A DNA stretch of 64,000 nucleotides, from assembly GCA_965248445.1 (NCBI GenBank), contig CBDFJG010000003.1, positions 288,001-352,000 on the forward strand, in the 5' to 3' direction. The DNA is from Planctomycetota bacterium (GTDB lineage Bacteria > Planctomycetota > JAJSAM01 > JAJVHW01). Positions within the stretch are counted from its first letter, which is position 1. Each line of letters opens with the position of its first letter. The position numbers were made by a program, and so were the translations under genes. The notes below the pieces were generated by a model. That model was not told the origin of the DNA and did no database searches. It saw only the letters and a list, made by a program, of their open reading frames with translations. Shown piece by piece: positions 3,283-36,557 of this stretch.

Positions 3283-3413
3283 GTGAAGAAGATCCTCCTC
3301 GCCGTACTCGTGATCGCGATCGTCGCAGGGATCGGCGCGCTCGTGTTGGTCGGCAATCTGGATCGGATCGTCGAGCACGCGATCGAGGCGGTCGGCAGCC
3401 GGGCAACCCGCGC
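3283..3413 (+). pseudogene. 5' fragment of an AsmA-like membrane-anchored protein, interrupted by the IS66 composite element
   Basis: VKKILLAVLVIAIVAGIGALVLVGNLDRIVEHAIEAVGSRATR; rejoins 8424-9033 in frame after removing the insert and one TSD copy (246 aa). Confidence 0.8.
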
Positions 3414-4945
3414 GTACCCGTTCAGGGTATGACGATCCGCGGCCTCAGCGCGTGATCGGGAGCGCGACGAGAGCCGGCGGCGAGCGGTTGTGCGCGAGTG
3501 CCGCGCTGACGTCTGCGAGGTAATCGAAGACGCTCTCGCCACGCTGGCGGAGCGTGGCGGTGACGGTCAGGATGCGCTCGACGAAGCGGAGTCCGCGCTC
3601 GCTCTGACTTCCGTGCGTTGCGCGTCTCCACAGGACCGGCTTGCGCACCGCGCGCTCAGCGGCGTTGTTCGTCGGGGAGACGCCAGGGACGTCGGCGAAG
3701 GTCCACAGAGCCTCCGCTCGGTCGAGCAGATGCCGAGTCGTTCCGCGTACTCGGCGGTGCTTGCTGTCTGCGCCGCGCACGAGCAGCGTCAGGAGTCGGT
3801 CCCATGTGAGACGCAGCTCACGCCGCATGCGGTCGCGGTCCCCGTGCTCGCCGAAGTGACGCTGAGCTCGCATGACAGCCTGGGCGAGACGCACGGCCTG
3901 CTTGCCGAAGCGCCGGCCGCCGCGCGAGCCCTCGGCCAGCGCTCGAAAGTCCCTCTCGAGATGCGCCCAGCAGATCTGGCGGCGCTCGGTGGGATGCTGG
4001 TCGTAAGCGCCCATACGGTCGGTCACGAGGACGCCCCTGAAGCGCTTGCCCACGAGTCGCCGCATGGCCTTGGCGCTCCTGCGCCGATCGATACGATGGA
4101 CCGTGGCGTGCTCACAGACCGCGCTCCACAGCCAATGCAGCGTGCCACGACGCGACCACGGTGTCTCGTCTACATAGGCGACGCTGCTCGTGCGTACGGC
4201 CCCGAGGGCCTCGATGTGCGCTGAGGAGATGGCTCCCGACACCCGCTCCTCGATCGCACTGACCGTGCCCGGTGACATCGAGACGCCGATGACGTCACGC
4301 AACAGACGACTGGTCTCGCGCCGCGACAGGCGGAAGACGCCGACCAGAGCCGCGGTGAGCGCACAGAGTCGCGGGCCGAAGGGACTCGCCGTCACACCGC
4401 TTGGCAGCGAGGCAGTGGACGTGGCGCCACAGTCCGTGCACCGTGCCCGGTGCAACCGGTGCTCGGTCACCTGGATCAGCCGTGGCGGGACCTCGAAGAC
4501 CTGCTGGCGTGTCGGGGCGCGATCGATCGGGACGAGCACGTCGCTCCCACACGCGCTGCACTCGCGCGGGCGGTGGTCCTCTACGCCATCGACCTCGGAC
4601 TCGTCCACGAGCTTGCGCGTCGCCCCTTTGTGGCCGGGCTGCGCACCCTGGCGCTTGTCCGACGGCGGCTTGCGCCGCCGCCGCTTCTTGGACCACGACG
4701 GATCCGAGGACGGTGGGCGCGAGGAGGTGCGGGAGTCCCGGCGAAGACGGCTCTCGAGATCGTCGATCCGTGCCGCCTGCCGCTCGATCACCTCCGCCTG
4801 CTCGGCAATCGTCTCGTCCCGAGCGTCCAGACGACGGGTCAGGCGCTCGACCAGATCACGCAGCTCATCGGTGCCCACATCCGATTCATCGACCGAACGG
4901 AAAGCGATCTGGATCCGAGCTCAGAACCAAGGGCTGAACGGGTAC
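3414..4945 (-). mobile_element. IS66-family element, single-ORF (ISBst12-like) type, copy 1 (1,532 bp)
   Basis: Perfect 12-bp terminal IR GTACCCGTTCAG/CTGAACGGGTAC; appears identical to 30464-31995. Confidence 0.92.
3445..4878 (-). CDS. IS66-family DDE transposase
   Basis: Coiled-coil N-terminus, SSRPPSSD, GAQPGHKG, CxxC zinc motifs, VDETPW, QICWAHLER and TNNAAER. Confidence 0.93.
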   Translation of the reverse strand: MGTDELRDLVERLTRRLDARDETIAEQAEVIERQAARIDDLESRLRRDSRTSSRPPSSDPSWSKKRRRRKPPSDKRQGAQPGHKGATRKLVDESEVDGVEDHRPRECSACGSDVLVPIDRAPTRQQVFEVPPRLIQVTEHRLHRARCTDCGATSTASLPSGVTASPFGPRLCALTAALVGVFRLSRRETSRLLRDVIGVSMSPGTVSAIEERVSGAISSAHIEALGAVRTSSVAYVDETPWSRRGTLHWLWSAVCEHATVHRIDRRRSAKAMRRLVGKRFRGVLVTDRMGAYDQHPTERRQICWAHLERDFRALAEGSRGGRRFGKQAVRLAQAVMRAQRHFGEHGDRDRMRRELRLTWDRLLTLLVRGADSKHRRVRGTTRHLLDRAEALWTFADVPGVSPTNNAAERAVRKPVLWRRATHGSQSERGLRFVERILTVTATLRQRGESVFDYLADVSAALAHNRSPPALVALPITR

Positions 4946-5726
4946 GGCTGGGCCATGGACCATCCGGAGAAACCGCCTCCCACTTCGCAGAGATCCTCCC
5001 GTCCCTACGGCGGCACTTCCATTGGCCGCCGTGCGCCTCAAGCGATTCGGCCACTGCCTTGGGGAGCACTCGTGCCACATGCCAGTAGGGCGAAGGCGCG
5101 GTCATGAGGAAGTCACGTGCGCTTCGTGGGTGGCGCTTCGCGTCGATGTTGGTCTGGTGAACGCCGTTGTCCCGCCACTCCGTGTTGAGAACGTGGATCA
5201 TCTCGCGGTCGGTATAGAGCGCCCGCAGCCGAGCCGACGTATCAGTCCACCCCTCCTTCGCCTCGAGCTTCATGTCACGGGAGAACTCCACCCATCCGGA
5301 CCCGGCAGAGATCTCGAAACCGTCAGGGTCTCCGCCCGCCTCCAGCGGAATCAGCGCGCGACTTGCGAGCTGCTGATCGACGAGTTCCTCCATGTCGGCC
5401 TGCTCGTCGGCCGAGGGAGGCTTGCCGATCAGTGCGTCCCAACGTGCACGGGCGCACGCCATTAGATGGGCCCGGGCAGCGTCGCGGAAGCCCGCCGGCG
5501 GCTCACGGTTCTCGAGGGAGTTCTCGAATACCGAGGTCCCATGAGGGAACCCACTCACGCCGTCGCGCAGGATCTGGGCGGCGAGAAGCGCCAAGTCGTT
5601 CTCCGACGGTTCCGGTTGCTCCTGCGCGAAGCCGACTCCGGTCATGCCGAGCAAGGAGACTGCCGCCGCCGCTACGACGCAGGCGCATCGGGCAGGAGCA
5701 CCCCGCAACGCCGACGTGAAGTTCAC
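4946..5726 (-). pseudogene. Secreted hypothetical protein, 3'-truncated by IS66
   Basis: Signal-like VVAAAAVSLLGMTGVGFAQ; the ORF runs into the IS66 end without its own stop. Confidence 0.55.
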
Positions 5727-5794
5727 GCGGCTCCAGCGTGGCCTCGTCAGCGGGGGACGAGACCACGCGTTGGGATTGTGGCTCACGACGCTTC

Positions 5795-7042
5795 CTAGGT
5801 GCAGTCGGGAAGCGTGTACGTCTTGACGCTGCTGCTCGGCGCGATCGAGTAGCAGCACTGATGGCCCTTCTTGGCCTTGAAGGCGGTCTGGTGCGCGCGC
5901 AGGACCAAGCCGATGGGGATGCTACACGACTGTGTCCACGTCGATACGGTGGTGGCAACCATGTTCACGGTGCTCGTGCCCACGGTGCATGTGCCATCGT
6001 CCTCACACTTGAACTGGTAGTAGAAGATGCGATCGGTCGTCGTTCCCGCGGTCCAACCGCGCGGACAGGTCACTGCCACTGACGTCTTCACGCACTTCCC
6101 GCACGCCGTGGTGGGAACTGATGCTGGCGGCTGCTGCGCCGGAACCGTCGTGGGGTAGCAGTCGTCGTCCGTCACCGTACCGGCGGGGAGTCCGGGCTCG
6201 GCGTCGAAGAGGATGCCACCGAAGCGAATGAAGCTGTTGATCGTTCCCAATGTCGACGTGGCCATCACGGTGAGGGTGGCCCTCTCGCTCGGGTACGCGA
6301 GCGCTGCGGACGGGTCGAACGCGATCAAAGCCGTGGCGCGGCTGTCCCCCGCGAGGACGGTGACCGTCGATGGCAGTGTGAGGGCGTCCAACAGCCTTGC
6401 GTCGCCCGAGAACGACAGAGTGTACTCGAGATCGGAGGACACCACGTCGTCGAGCAGGACGGTGAGTTCCACGTCGCCGGGCGTCCGAACGCCCTCCACG
6501 ATCGACTCGTCGTCCGGGACGATCGTGTGAGCCAGCATGTCGGTGTTGGCTTGGTAGACTCCGAGGTCGTCCTCCCCGAGGACGCCTGTCGTGGGGTTCA
6601 CCGTCATCACGCCCGGCCGCCCTACGTAGACGTAGAACTTCTGGTCGGCATCGATGAGCGCAGGGTGGAACGACAGGGCGTTCACCATCGGGATCTTGGC
6701 GGTCACACGGGTGCCCGCGCCATACGGCTCGTAGGAAACGAGCGTCTCATCGAGGGTGTGGTAACGCGTCGAGCCCGACTCGGCCCAGGTCACGCCGCCA
6801 CCGTCGAAGTCGAGCGCGTAGGCCACGACGACGTCGGTCGTGGGGGTCGCGTAGTCGGTGACGACTTCCACGTACCCGTGGCTCGCCACCGTGTCGATGA
6901 AGACCGGCGATCCACCGTCCACGAGGGTCGTCGCCGATCCCGTCCCCGGGTTCCACGTGGCCGACTGGATGTCACCAGCAAATGCAGTAGCCGTGGACGA
7001 GGCGAGAACGCCCAAGACCAGCGGCAGCACGAATCTATTCAT
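5795..7042 (-). CDS. Secreted hypothetical protein with a beta-rich/Calx-beta-like middle region and a Cys-rich C-terminal domain
   Basis: GGAGGA RBS; signal peptide MNRFVLPLVLGVLASSTATAFA; all 10 Cys lie in the last ~120 aa. Confidence 0.75.
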   Translation of the reverse strand: MNRFVLPLVLGVLASSTATAFAGDIQSATWNPGTGSATTLVDGGSPVFIDTVASHGYVEVVTDYATPTTDVVVAYALDFDGGGVTWAESGSTRYHTLDETLVSYEPYGAGTRVTAKIPMVNALSFHPALIDADQKFYVYVGRPGVMTVNPTTGVLGEDDLGVYQANTDMLAHTIVPDDESIVEGVRTPGDVELTVLLDDVVSSDLEYTLSFSGDARLLDALTLPSTVTVLAGDSRATALIAFDPSAALAYPSERATLTVMATSTLGTINSFIRFGGILFDAEPGLPAGTVTDDDCYPTTVPAQQPPASVPTTACGKCVKTSVAVTCPRGWTAGTTTDRIFYYQFKCEDDGTCTVGTSTVNMVATTVSTWTQSCSIPIGLVLRAHQTAFKAKKGHQCCYSIAPSSSVKTYTLPDCT

Positions 7043-7247
7043 CACATTTTCCTCCATGGTTTGCGAGCCCCAGTGCGGCTACCCTCTACCTGGGGCCAGA
7101 GTAGATCGACGGCCCAGGACCTGTCAACACGCTGGATCGGCGGGCGAGGCGGAACCCGCGACCTGTCAAGGCGCCGGGTAGGGCTCTTGAGGCGGCCGGA
7201 CATTGCGATGAAGGGCGTGGAACTCCGCCGCGGCAGGGTGGTCGATC

Positions 7248-7509
7248 TGCAGCGGTAGTGCAGCGGTGGTCGGATTCGCCCGATCCGGAGGCGCGCGGCA
7301 GATCGCACGCAGAAACCGCAAACCACTGTTCTCGAAGGACTTACGCTGGTCGGGGCGAGAGGATTTGAACCTCCGGCCTCTTGCTCCCGAAGCAACGAGA
7401 GATCGTTGTCCAGCAAGGACTTACGCGTGTCCCTCGCTGCACAAGCCGCACAAGAGGCAGGAGCGGGCGGACGTTGTGCAGCGGTAGTGCAGCGGTAGTG
7501 CAGCGGTGA
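7248..7509. other. attP-like site: tRNA-Pro 3' core flanked by arm-type repeats and IHF-like motifs
   Basis: TGCAGCGGTRR x2 (7248-7269) and x3 (7477-7509); AAGGACTTACGC at 7335-7346 and 7415-7426; tRNA fragment between them. Confidence 0.7.
7347..7395 (-). pseudogene. 3' part of tRNA-Pro(CGG) (anticodon arm, T arm, acceptor 3' strand, CCA); att core
   Basis: Minus strand reads TTGCTTCGGGAGCAAGAGGCCGGAGGTTCAAATCCTCTCGCCCCGACCA; the D arm and 5' acceptor strand are absent. Confidence 0.85.
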
Positions 7510-7544
7510 TCCCTGGCGGAGATCGTGTCCCGGCCAGCGCCGAC

Positions 7545-7659
7545 AACGTTTTCGACTACCTCGCACAGGTCAGCGCCGCCCCCGCGCACAACCGATCGCC
7601 GCCCTCGCTCGTCGCGTTGCCGACGACGCGGTGATCGGCGAGACGGTCAATGGCTGAAC
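7545..7659 (+). pseudogene. IS66 transposase 3'-end relic
   Basis: Encodes NVFDYLAQVSAAPAHNRSPPSLVALPTTR*, versus SVFDYLADVSAALAHNRSPPALVALPITR* in the intact transposase; followed by partial IR CTGAAC. Confidence 0.8.
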
Positions 7660-7761
7660 ATCCATGAGAAGGCCTCTTGTGTCAAGGCGTCGGATCGACT
7701 TGGCGATCCGTCCACCGCAACCGATGCCGGCTCCCTCTGCACGCATCCATCCGCACTCGTC

Positions 7762-8170
7762 GTAACCGTTCACCCCTTCGTCGCGAGCCAGTATCCAGAT
7801 CGTTCGGCCACCGGTCGATCAAGATGTTGTGGGCGAGCGGCAGGACGAGGATCTGCGGGCGATGGTCGAGGACCTTCTGGCCTGGATCGAGGAGCTGGAG
7901 CGTCGCGAAGCGAAGCATCTGCGCCGCATCGACGAGCTCGAGTCGCGTCTGAAGCGTGACTCCCGCAACAGCTCGAGGCCTCCGTCGTCGGACCCGGCGT
8001 GGTCCAAGCGCCGTCGCGGCCGAAGGCCGCGTAGCGGTCGCAAGCAGGGCGGACAGCCGGGCCATGAGGGCACGGCGCGCGAGCTGGTGGATCCGTCCAA
8101 CGTCGATGAGACCAAGGACCACCGTCCCGACCGCTGCGACGCGTGCGGACACGACGATCTCGAGCAGGGG
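7762..8170 (+). pseudogene. 5' relic of a second, related IS66 element
   Basis: Begins GTAACCGTTCAC; ORF from 7829 has RDSRNSSRPPSSD, GGQPGHEG and HRPDRCDACG, then similarity stops. Confidence 0.8.
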
Positions 8171-8304
8171 GCGAGCGGAGCGAGCCCTCACGAGGCGCAG
8201 GGGGCTCCCCCGGCAATTTGGTCTCCTTCTTCGTCATCGCTGATTCCTCCACCGCCCTGCACAGTAATCATCCGGGGGGTCGGTGTCTCAGCGATGTTGG
8301 CACA
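8171..8304 (-). mobile_element. Possible IS3/IS481-type left-end relic
   Basis: Minus strand starts TGTGCCAACATCGCTGAGACACC, followed by a GGAGG RBS and MTKKETKLPGEPP; tentative. Confidence 0.35.
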
Positions 8305-8309
8305 GAGGG

Positions 8310-8415
8310 CAGGCGCTCGACCAGATCACGCGGCTCATCGGTGCCCACATCCGATGCATCGACCGAACGGGAAGCGATCTGGATCCGAGCTCAGAACCAA
8401 GGGCTGAACGGATAC
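8310..8415 (-). mobile_element. ~106-bp diverged copy of the IS66 left end, forming the right boundary of the composite unit
   Basis: Matches 4840-4945 with a few substitutions, in the same orientation. Confidence 0.88.
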
Positions 8416-8423
8416 ACCCGCGC

Positions 8424-9033
8424 CACGGTCATGGTCGACGCGGTCGACCTGCAGATCACCGAGGGCAAGGGGACGATCAGCGGGGTCTCTGTCGGTAGTC
8501 CGGCGGGCTTCGCGGCTGAGCGCGCGTTCGCGTTCGATCGCGTGACTGTGGAACTCGATCCGGACGCGCTGACGCGCGTGCCGATCGTCGTCCGGCGGGT
8601 CACGGTCGACCGCTGCGACGTCACGTATGAATGGCAGCTCCACGGAAGCAACATGTCACGCCTGCAGGAGAACGTCCGCGAGTACCTGGCGGGCGAACGC
8701 ACCATCCGGGAGGCCGCCGGAGGGGATGAACCCTCCCGCGTCGTCATCGAGGAACTCGTGATCTCGGGCGGCACGATCGACCTGACGGCGTCGGCGCTCG
8801 GTTCAGCGGTCGTTGCGCTGCCGCTCGACCGGATCGTGCTCCACGACGTGGGCAAGAAGGAGGGCGGCGCAACAGCGGGGGAGATCACCGCTGAGCTCGT
8901 GCGCGCGCTCACTCGCCGCGTGATCGAAGCCGTCGCGAACTCCGGTGTCGACGTCCTGGACGATGCCCGGAAGACGGGCGAGAAGATCCTCGAGGGCGCG
9001 AAGGACATCCTCGACGGCGCGCGCGGGGACTAG
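8424..9033 (+). pseudogene. 3' fragment of the AsmA-like protein
   Basis: Beta-rich sequence (GKGTISGVSVGSPAGF...VVIEELVISGGTI...LDRIVLHDVG) continuing the frame of 3283-3413. Confidence 0.8.
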
Positions 9034-36246: not shown

Positions 36247-36470
36247 GCGCCTCCCGTTACGGCACCCATCGATGGCGTGATTGTGCCGCACGGGGAGTGA
36301 GGGGCCGCTCCACCGGGTGCTGCGAACGCACTCGGACTCGCCGCGGGGCGTGGCTACCCTGTGCGCCGCCGCCAAGGGCCGAGATCGAGGGCGATAAGTA
36401 GCCAGGGAAGTAGCCGCGCACTCGCGGGTGTCCTCGGCAACTGCCGTAAGTCCTTGGCTGACAACACAGT

Positions 36471-36557
36471 GCCGGAGTGGCGGAATGGCAGACGCGTAGG
36501 ATTCAAAATCCTGTGCCCGTAAAGGGCGTGAGGGTTCGACTCCCTCCTCCGGCACCA
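36471..36557 (+). tRNA. tRNA-Leu(CAA)
   Basis: GCCGGAG/CTCCGGC acceptor stem, TAGGA-TTCAAAA-TCCTG anticodon arm, long variable arm, GGTTCGACTCC and CCA end. Confidence 0.95.

Follow-up and report, generated by a model that had tools for sequence, protein, structure and literature searches.

Tandem integrated elements which share one tRNA gene have been described before, and the closest described case is the chimeric attI site of Streptococcus agalactiae, where a decayed ICE and IME_Sag2603_tRNAlys are found in tandem and excision is reported to take place via the chimeric site (PMC5704250). Like the site reported here, attI joins two elements at the 3' end of a single tRNA, each element contributing one arm. 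There are three differences: our elements are prophage-like, their integrases are 87% identical (vs < 30% in S. agalactiae), and our seam has been parted from one integrase and duplicated by IS66. Tandems at tRNA genes have also been catalogued, including 125 in Islander (PMC4383910), the tandem ssrA islands of Dehalococcoides (PMC3146451) and the arrays in PMC5812530. Our array resembles those in Islander in having a tRNA 3' fragment and a tyrosine integrase for each member and in its anticodon-loop site class, and is unlike them in having been shattered by IS recombination, with its seams on different contigs and strands; the Dehalococcoides islands, unlike this array, use a serine recombinase. 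Members of the ISBst12 group of the IS66 family are described as having a single ORF and generating an 8-bp duplication (PMC12898284; PMC8024623), and our IS66 element shares with them a single-ORF transposase, an 8-bp duplication and imperfect terminal repeats. Unlike usual composites, the unit described here has a full IS at one boundary and a 109-bp IS end remnant at the other, and what it carries is an att seam and not a selected gene. Neither an IS66 composite with an att seam or attP as cargo nor an "attP-like" tandem junction was the subject of any paper found in our literature search, which covered few subscription journals.

We conclude with high confidence that a tandem array at tRNA-Pro(CGG) gave rise to this site as a chimeric attR/attL ("attI") junction, which IS66 copied together with two passenger genes. 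The feature and its transposition are both real and the site is of a known kind, making this an ordinary though well documented case.

The att site in the window

We analysed a window of 64,000 nucleotides (C3:288001-352000) from the genome of a Planctomycetota bacterium (G000; coordinates outside the window are given as contig:position). Lambda-type attP sites have a P-O-P' structure with arm-type, IHF and Xis sites, and the IHF core consensus is CAANNNNTTR. The site in the window is like these in its layout of ~260 bp, with a core between phased direct repeats and putative host-factor sites, and unlike them in that its arms trace to two elements and it is chromosomal. All of the features named in the original prediction (the core, the AAGGACTTACGC pair, the two plus three repeats and the two copies of GCACAAG) were present where they had been placed (Table 1), and the identification as an att site of a tyrosine-integrase element at tRNA-Pro(CGG) was upheld.

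Table 1 Features of the att site, the IS66-bounded unit and its surroundings (positions in the window)
Feature	Position	Strand	Description
AsmA/DUF748-like host gene	3283..9033	+	Split into 3283-3413 and 8416-9033
Target duplication ACCCGCGC, left copy	3406..3413	+	8 bp; right copy at 8416-8423
Composite unit	3414-8415		5002 bp; IS66-bounded, 8-bp duplication on both sides
IS66-family element	3414..4945	-	Complete, 1532 bp, single ORF; left boundary of unit
IS66 transposase	3445-4878		PF03050 and NF033517 above cut-off
GGCTGGGC	4946..4953	+	One half of an earlier IS66 target duplication, the other half adjoining the IS copy at C4:1078730
Broken cargo gene, 5' part	4946..5858	-	~304 codons; interrupted by IS66
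420-aa cargo protein	5795..7057	-	Signal-peptide-like start; near-orphan
Left (P') arm	7248..7269	+	Two tandem 11-bp arm-type repeats (predicted)
AAGGACTTACGC, left copy	7335..7346	+	Putative host-factor site; no fit to CAANNNNTTR
att core	7347..7395	-	3' 49 nt of tRNA-Pro(CGG), starting in the anticodon stem
AAGGACTTACGC, right copy	7415..7426	+	Putative IHF-like site
GCACAAG x2 (at 7439 and 7448)	7439..7454	+	In P arm; putative Xis sites
Right (P) arm	7477..7509	+	Three tandem 11-bp arm-type repeats (predicted)
Debris of several IS families	7530..8310	.	Prophage P end; matches multicopy IS ends and fragments
IS66 end remnant	8307..8415	.	109 bp, 95% identical to IS end; right boundary of unit

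The core proved identical (49/49) to C4:25273-25321, which lies within the sole tRNA-Pro(CGG) gene of the genome (G000:C4:25273-25349, minus strand), as expected for a core derived from a host tRNA. The likely crossover region is the anticodon loop (7385-7391), because the junction cores of relatives lose identity there: in many of them this happens at the end of the anticodon loop, at core position 44-46. The repeat TGCAGCGGTRR starts at 7248 and 7259 on the left and at 7477, 7488 and 7499 on the right, in a single orientation throughout. These repeats, present on both sides of the core, are shared with an integrase-linked element, and an arm-type role is predicted for them. Compared with the flank of the native tRNA, the left arm has the same repeats at equal spacing and a diverged spacer. 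A 20-mer of the tandem arm occurred 3 times in the window and 0 times in each of 100 shuffles; genome-wide there were 13 occurrences at ≤ 3 mismatches, every one at core or arm sites, and there were none in the viral contigs searched. Only the right AAGGACTTACGC copy fits the IHF consensus, through CAAGGACTTA at 7414-7423, and an 11-mer of this right site also adjoins tRNA-Leu genes at C3:324455 and C4:1666358. Pairs similar to the two GCACAAG copies recur within the P arms of relatives.

No PF00589 match was found inside the window and 22 were found elsewhere in the genome. The absence of an integrase is thus true of the window only, several cognate integrases being encoded elsewhere in the genome. 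The first 101 nt of the P arm past the core are identical (101/101) to a second complete site at C4:1978704 and match a third at C4:90204 at 97/101 positions; since the arm is shared in full with another complete site, the seam is probably competent as a sequence. It may work like an attP and could probably be bound by the resident integrases.

Two proposed elements flanking the core

The P side was followed from the second copy of the unit, on C2. Here IS debris is followed by an RHS-repeat gene and then by phage structural genes (tail fibre, tape measure, major tail, connectors, capsid, protease, portal and both terminase subunits), and the right arm runs into a complete siphovirus-like prophage. 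The last 12.5 kb of C2 equal the first 12.5 kb of C4 at 99.97%, the start of C4 differing by 3 single-base gaps that other copies lack and 1 mismatch. Onward on C4 we found Sak4-like, SSB, ERCC4, RecD-like, primase, excisionase and integrase genes, then a short MerR-like frame, an arm of two TGCAGCGGTAG repeats and the intact tRNA-Pro(CGG). When joined via this overlap the prophage, which we call A1, measures 56,081 bp from core to core. Its integrase (C4:21799-23061), of which there is a 99.6% copy at C4:90884, ends 2.1 kb from the arm repeats beside the tRNA, with an IS66 in between. The search for arm repeats close to an integrase which the original prediction had proposed was therefore successful.

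It should be noted that the C2-C4 overlap sits in a repeat found at several contig ends, which makes the join plausible and not unique, and that the pairing holds only with the C3 copy of this repeat correctly resolved; GC skew was uninformative on contig order. Most of the doubt on the join is removed by a relative, G006:C64, which has on one contig the tRNA, the same arm, an integrase ~80% identical and the same 58-kb prophage in the same order, with most structural proteins 85-97% identical to those of A1. At its far end, 58 kb off, lies an arm-core-arm seam whose P arm is of the TGCAGCGG type and whose P' arm differs, and 4.3 kb behind this seam there is a second integrase. Arms of the TGCAGCGG type are found at both ends of A1 (56 kb) and at both ends of the G006:C64 prophage (58 kb). 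RHS-repeat proteins of ~1700 aa recur near the ends of this prophage family (G000:C2:857081-862165, C3:458772, C4:111363 and C4:1966304), and RHS-repeat genes likewise in the relatives L044, L029, L038 and L045.

The left arm and the cargo appear to belong to a second element, X, to which they are linked via an IS66 target duplication. We paired the 8-bp flanks across all ends of this IS66 in the genome. Of the 40 right ends, 14 carried the flank of their own left end, 1 was that of the composite unit, 17 carried the flank of another copy and 8 had no partner; a random 8-mer matches the left-flank set with a probability of 0.002. The 17 ends with swapped flanks suggest that the chromosome has recently been reshuffled. 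The GGCTGGGC pair and a reciprocal pair, TTTCCGAG, which connects C2:851326 with C4:1077203, together bear the signature of IS-by-IS exchange. Reading phase agrees on both sides of the GGCTGGGC break, the remaining ~199 codons of the broken cargo gene continuing as an open frame from C4:1078731 onward. Past this 199-codon frame, C4 carries a DUF1573 gene, a gene interrupted in frame by IS1380, and then an integrase and an excisionase (C4:1082892-1084452). As the duplications pair and the reading frames agree, there is a strong argument that IS66 insertion and IS-IS exchange cut the cargo of X off from its integrase.

The integrase of X (C4:1082892-1084115) is 87% identical to that of A1 over 377 aa, and its placement among integrases of the TGCAGCGG type has modest support (81/95). 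With the IS1380 removed, its end would lie ~4.9 kb from the core (2401 + 4153 - 1677). The target duplication of the IS1380 (CTAG) is uninformative, and this link rests on frame continuity, which would arise by chance 1 time in 3.

In a reconstruction that passes over an IS swap and a contig overlap, the core is flanked by two elements, each with an integrase (A1 at C4:21799; X with integrase and excisionase at C4:1082892-1084452). We propose that a lambda-like prophage, A1, would have integrated at the tRNA with its sister element X behind it, giving a seam of the form P(A1)-core-P'(X); this step is proposed because of the gene content, the contig overlap and the one relative. Insertion of IS66 would then have broken a cargo gene of X at a distance of 2.4 kb from the core. 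Two IS66 copies would next have recombined and swapped their flanks, parting the integrase side of X (C4:1078731-1084452) from the seam (C2). The locus thereby offers a well documented case of IS66 dismantling a prophage array, traceable by its 8-bp duplications.

The window P arm probably traces to the tRNA-proximal prophage A1. However, it is the same as the P arm of C4:1978704, so that the arm cannot be assigned to A1 from its sequence by itself and it could equally be the P arm of X. The latter would agree with an alternative in which the site is the true attP of X as a single element, the excised circle having been brought into the chromosome by IS activity. This alternative, which we think unlikely, also fits with the same repeat type in both arms, with a P arm of X that could match that of C4:1978704 and with the existence of two further complete sites (C4:90204 and C4:1978704) with IS66 debris on the P side. 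Against this, the P side of the source leads into a full prophage which, by the overlap, ends at another integrase and another P' arm, and G006:C64 has the same tandem layout with a second integrase on one contig. Even on this reading the element would not be integrase-less. The original prediction took the presence of both arms as the mark of an excised form; this premise was not supported, as tandem seams also have both arms, and the arms here trace to two elements, the P side to A1 with its own different P' arm and the P' side to the integrase at C4:1082892. The site is therefore read as a tandem seam and very probably is not an excised, integrase-less attP.

The IS66-bounded unit and its cargo

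The site had been predicted to be carried as cargo of an IS66-bounded unit, and the 8-bp target duplication bears this out. We take the movement of the 5002-bp unit by composite transposition as established at the sequence level, because the duplication flanks the whole unit. Both pieces of the AsmA-like gene share one phase at the duplication (the DUF748 match of this gene is weak and under its cut-off). The IS66 element has 32 near-full-length copies in the genome, and the terminal inverted repeat of the 109-bp remnant carries one change. A 100% identical copy of the unit is present at C2:851326-856327, with flanks which differ from those of the window copy. The C2 copy has no paired target duplication and the window copy has ACCCGCGC on both sides, which points to the C2 copy as the source and the window copy as the daughter; as there are only two copies and these are 100% identical, a single recent transposition event is indicated. 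In this final step of the proposed history, which the target duplication shows, the IS66 acted with a 109-bp IS end lying 3.4 kb from it and transposed 5002 bp into the AsmA-like gene on C3. If the contigs are ordered along the most economical path, the unit in the window has the opposite orientation to the native array.

The 420-aa cargo protein had no match in Pfam, PHROG or NCBIfam, and the window part of the broken cargo gene had none in Pfam or NCBIfam. We found one distant non-self homologue of the 420-aa protein (61%), and its best ESM Atlas score was 0.81, with recognition under threshold. No relative was confirmed for the 420-aa protein in metagenome contigs, nor for the 5' part of the broken gene in genome contigs. 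In its own genome the cargo is present on C3 and C2 only, as two identical copies of which neither is beside the intact tRNA. The cargo of X (window 5795-7057 and G000:C4:1078731-1082800) forms a co-oriented gene run, comprising a Cys/Thr-rich, apparently secreted near-orphan, a gene of ~500 codons, a DUF1573 gene and a membrane protein whose end is Ig-like.

Six sequencing runs from two studies contained the sequence, with no RNA run among those listed. Four of these were examined as contigs. Among the pieces and joints listed for them, none connected either arm with the 5' half of the tRNA, but the contigs break at the core and so cannot show the absence of arm-tRNA joints. Runs X1 and X3 may derive from the source sample and so are not independent, and run X6, in which the P arm had no coverage, was not taken as evidence. 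In the runs of the second study a 97%-identical cargo allele reaches the core via a spacer unlike that of the window. The IS boundary coincides exactly with the start of the match in one contig of low depth (3.5), where 47 other letters precede it; this weakly hints at an allele without the IS.

The window copy is a passive passenger. It is improbable that the transposed seam is an active att site, which on prophage induction the resident Int/Xis would recombine with the tRNA-Pro attL or with other scattered seams, giving megabase inversions, or that a 5-kb circle of the unit would dock at tRNA-Pro. If this were true, IS66 would seed sites of integrase-driven rearrangement, and the hybrid sites at C4:288090 and C4:1286164 might record such events.

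The original prediction also inferred that this could be a dual-mode non-autonomous element. On this reading the unit moves by IS66 transposition and also docks as a circle at tRNA-Pro via resident integrases. DDE movement is borne out by the target duplication, all attP-like parts and intact-looking integrases are present, and ISBst12-group IS66 elements are called "copy-and-paste" in one paper (PMC12898284). The docking half of this reading was not supported: the unit contains only one core, its cargo lacks the bracketing attL and attR of a CIME, and no copy lies by the tRNA. The two identical copies reflect one recent event only and neither is at a tRNA, the unit holds a broken gene and IS debris, and scans of genomes and metagenomes without relatives of the cargo proteins give no conserved unit of cargo, att site and IS. 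The 97% cargo allele of the second study has a different spacer, and the depth-3.5 contig starts at the IS boundary. We therefore consider a dual-mode element very unlikely.

That the second copy is an assembly artefact is scarcely credible, for although the copies are 100% identical in an IS-rich genome of 4 contigs, the copy in the window lies between 8-bp duplications of its own and interrupts a gene in frame, and the flanks on C2 differ, the left one pairing reciprocally with another IS copy.

Relatives and other att sites in the genome

We searched 40 relatives and took 20 loci from the best or clustered hits, so that the following counts are not those of a random sample. These loci carry 30 core copies, 4 in intact tRNAs and 26 as fragments. 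By an automated test, 4 of the 26 fragments had tandem repeats in both arms, 11 in the left arm only, 6 in the right arm only and 5 in neither; many of the arms missed by this test could be read by eye as degenerate 11-12-bp repeats. Within the stretch examined, a co-oriented integrase was found on the P' side of 12/30 core sites, at a distance of 0.33-7.9 kb and beyond 2.4 kb in 8 of the 12 (L043, at 12,460 nt, was left out as this distance crosses another core). With the integrase so often several kb behind the cargo, a cut like that in the window would in many cases produce an "integrase-less attP". Where an arm-core-arm site has no integrase close by, it should therefore not be taken as evidence for an excised attP or a helper-dependent element, as tandem seams look alike and the integrase of this lineage is often 2-8 kb behind cargo.

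Islands with matching arms at their ends were found in relatives at G006:C64 (58 kb), G006:C45 (16.3 kb) and G001:C24 (95 kb); in these, the arm without a match faces outward to the neighbour. We rejected an integron-like cassette array, as the islands between cores are 16-95 kb and have their own integrases, and set aside a non-coding RNA reading, which is not needed to explain the repeats. The arm 20-mer was found at ≤ 1 mismatch in 3 of the 8 family genomes, including our own, and the repeats seen beside the tRNA are present in the relatives G005 and G006. The arm repeats differ among related integrases, including TGCAGCGG, TCCAGCGG, GAGCACCT, GCCCCTCC, CAACTCT and GTGGAT, with a period of 11-12 bp (L028-L045). 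These variants are a natural series for arm-binding specificity, and matched integrase/att pairs with arm-repeat variants are hereby supplied for an uncultured lineage. Five co-oriented tRNA-Pro cores lie within 10 kb at G016:C76:6221-16096 (L026) and three within 7 kb at G008:C12:48197-55394 (L027), with no match to this integrase within the stretch examined; these are possibly arrays of small integrase-less remnants.

In our own genome, the sites at C4:90204 (minus strand, L002) and C4:1978704 (plus strand, L005) are complete arm-core-arm sites with a P' arm which matches the native attL (124/125 and 122/125, respectively). An integrase is present at one of the two, and the other is truncated 166 bp to the left of its core. 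On the P side, both share their IS66 debris with an inverted arm remnant that lies upstream of the tRNA, at C4:26388. Two further tRNA-Pro(CGG) seams, at C4:288090 (plus strand, L003) and C4:1286164 (minus strand, L004), each have their own integrase and lie in opposite orientation 1 Mb apart. Their arms are reciprocal, one having two GAGTGACCCG on the left and two CAACTCT on the right and the other the reverse; this pair may be either a C-D-C array scattered by IS elements or the result of an inversion between two att sites. An integrase frame at C4:287048 passes through the core without a stop. At G000:C3:489376-489492 there is a P arm with 16 nt of the core and at G006:C29:87258-87397 (L033) one with 27 nt; both have the appearance of an attR at a secondary site or of a truncated seam.

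The IS load of the genome is heavy, with 32 IS66-A, 69 IS1380, 49 IS66-B ends and 10 IS1595. CTAG-like sequence is found at both ends of the IS1380 copies, and these are arranged in head-to-tail runs. Elsewhere in the window, at 36322-36557, a tRNA-Leu(CAA) has AAGGACTTACG just upstream, near 36455. This stretch resembles the flanks of tRNA-Leu(TAA) and tRNA-Met on C4, which suggests another att junction.
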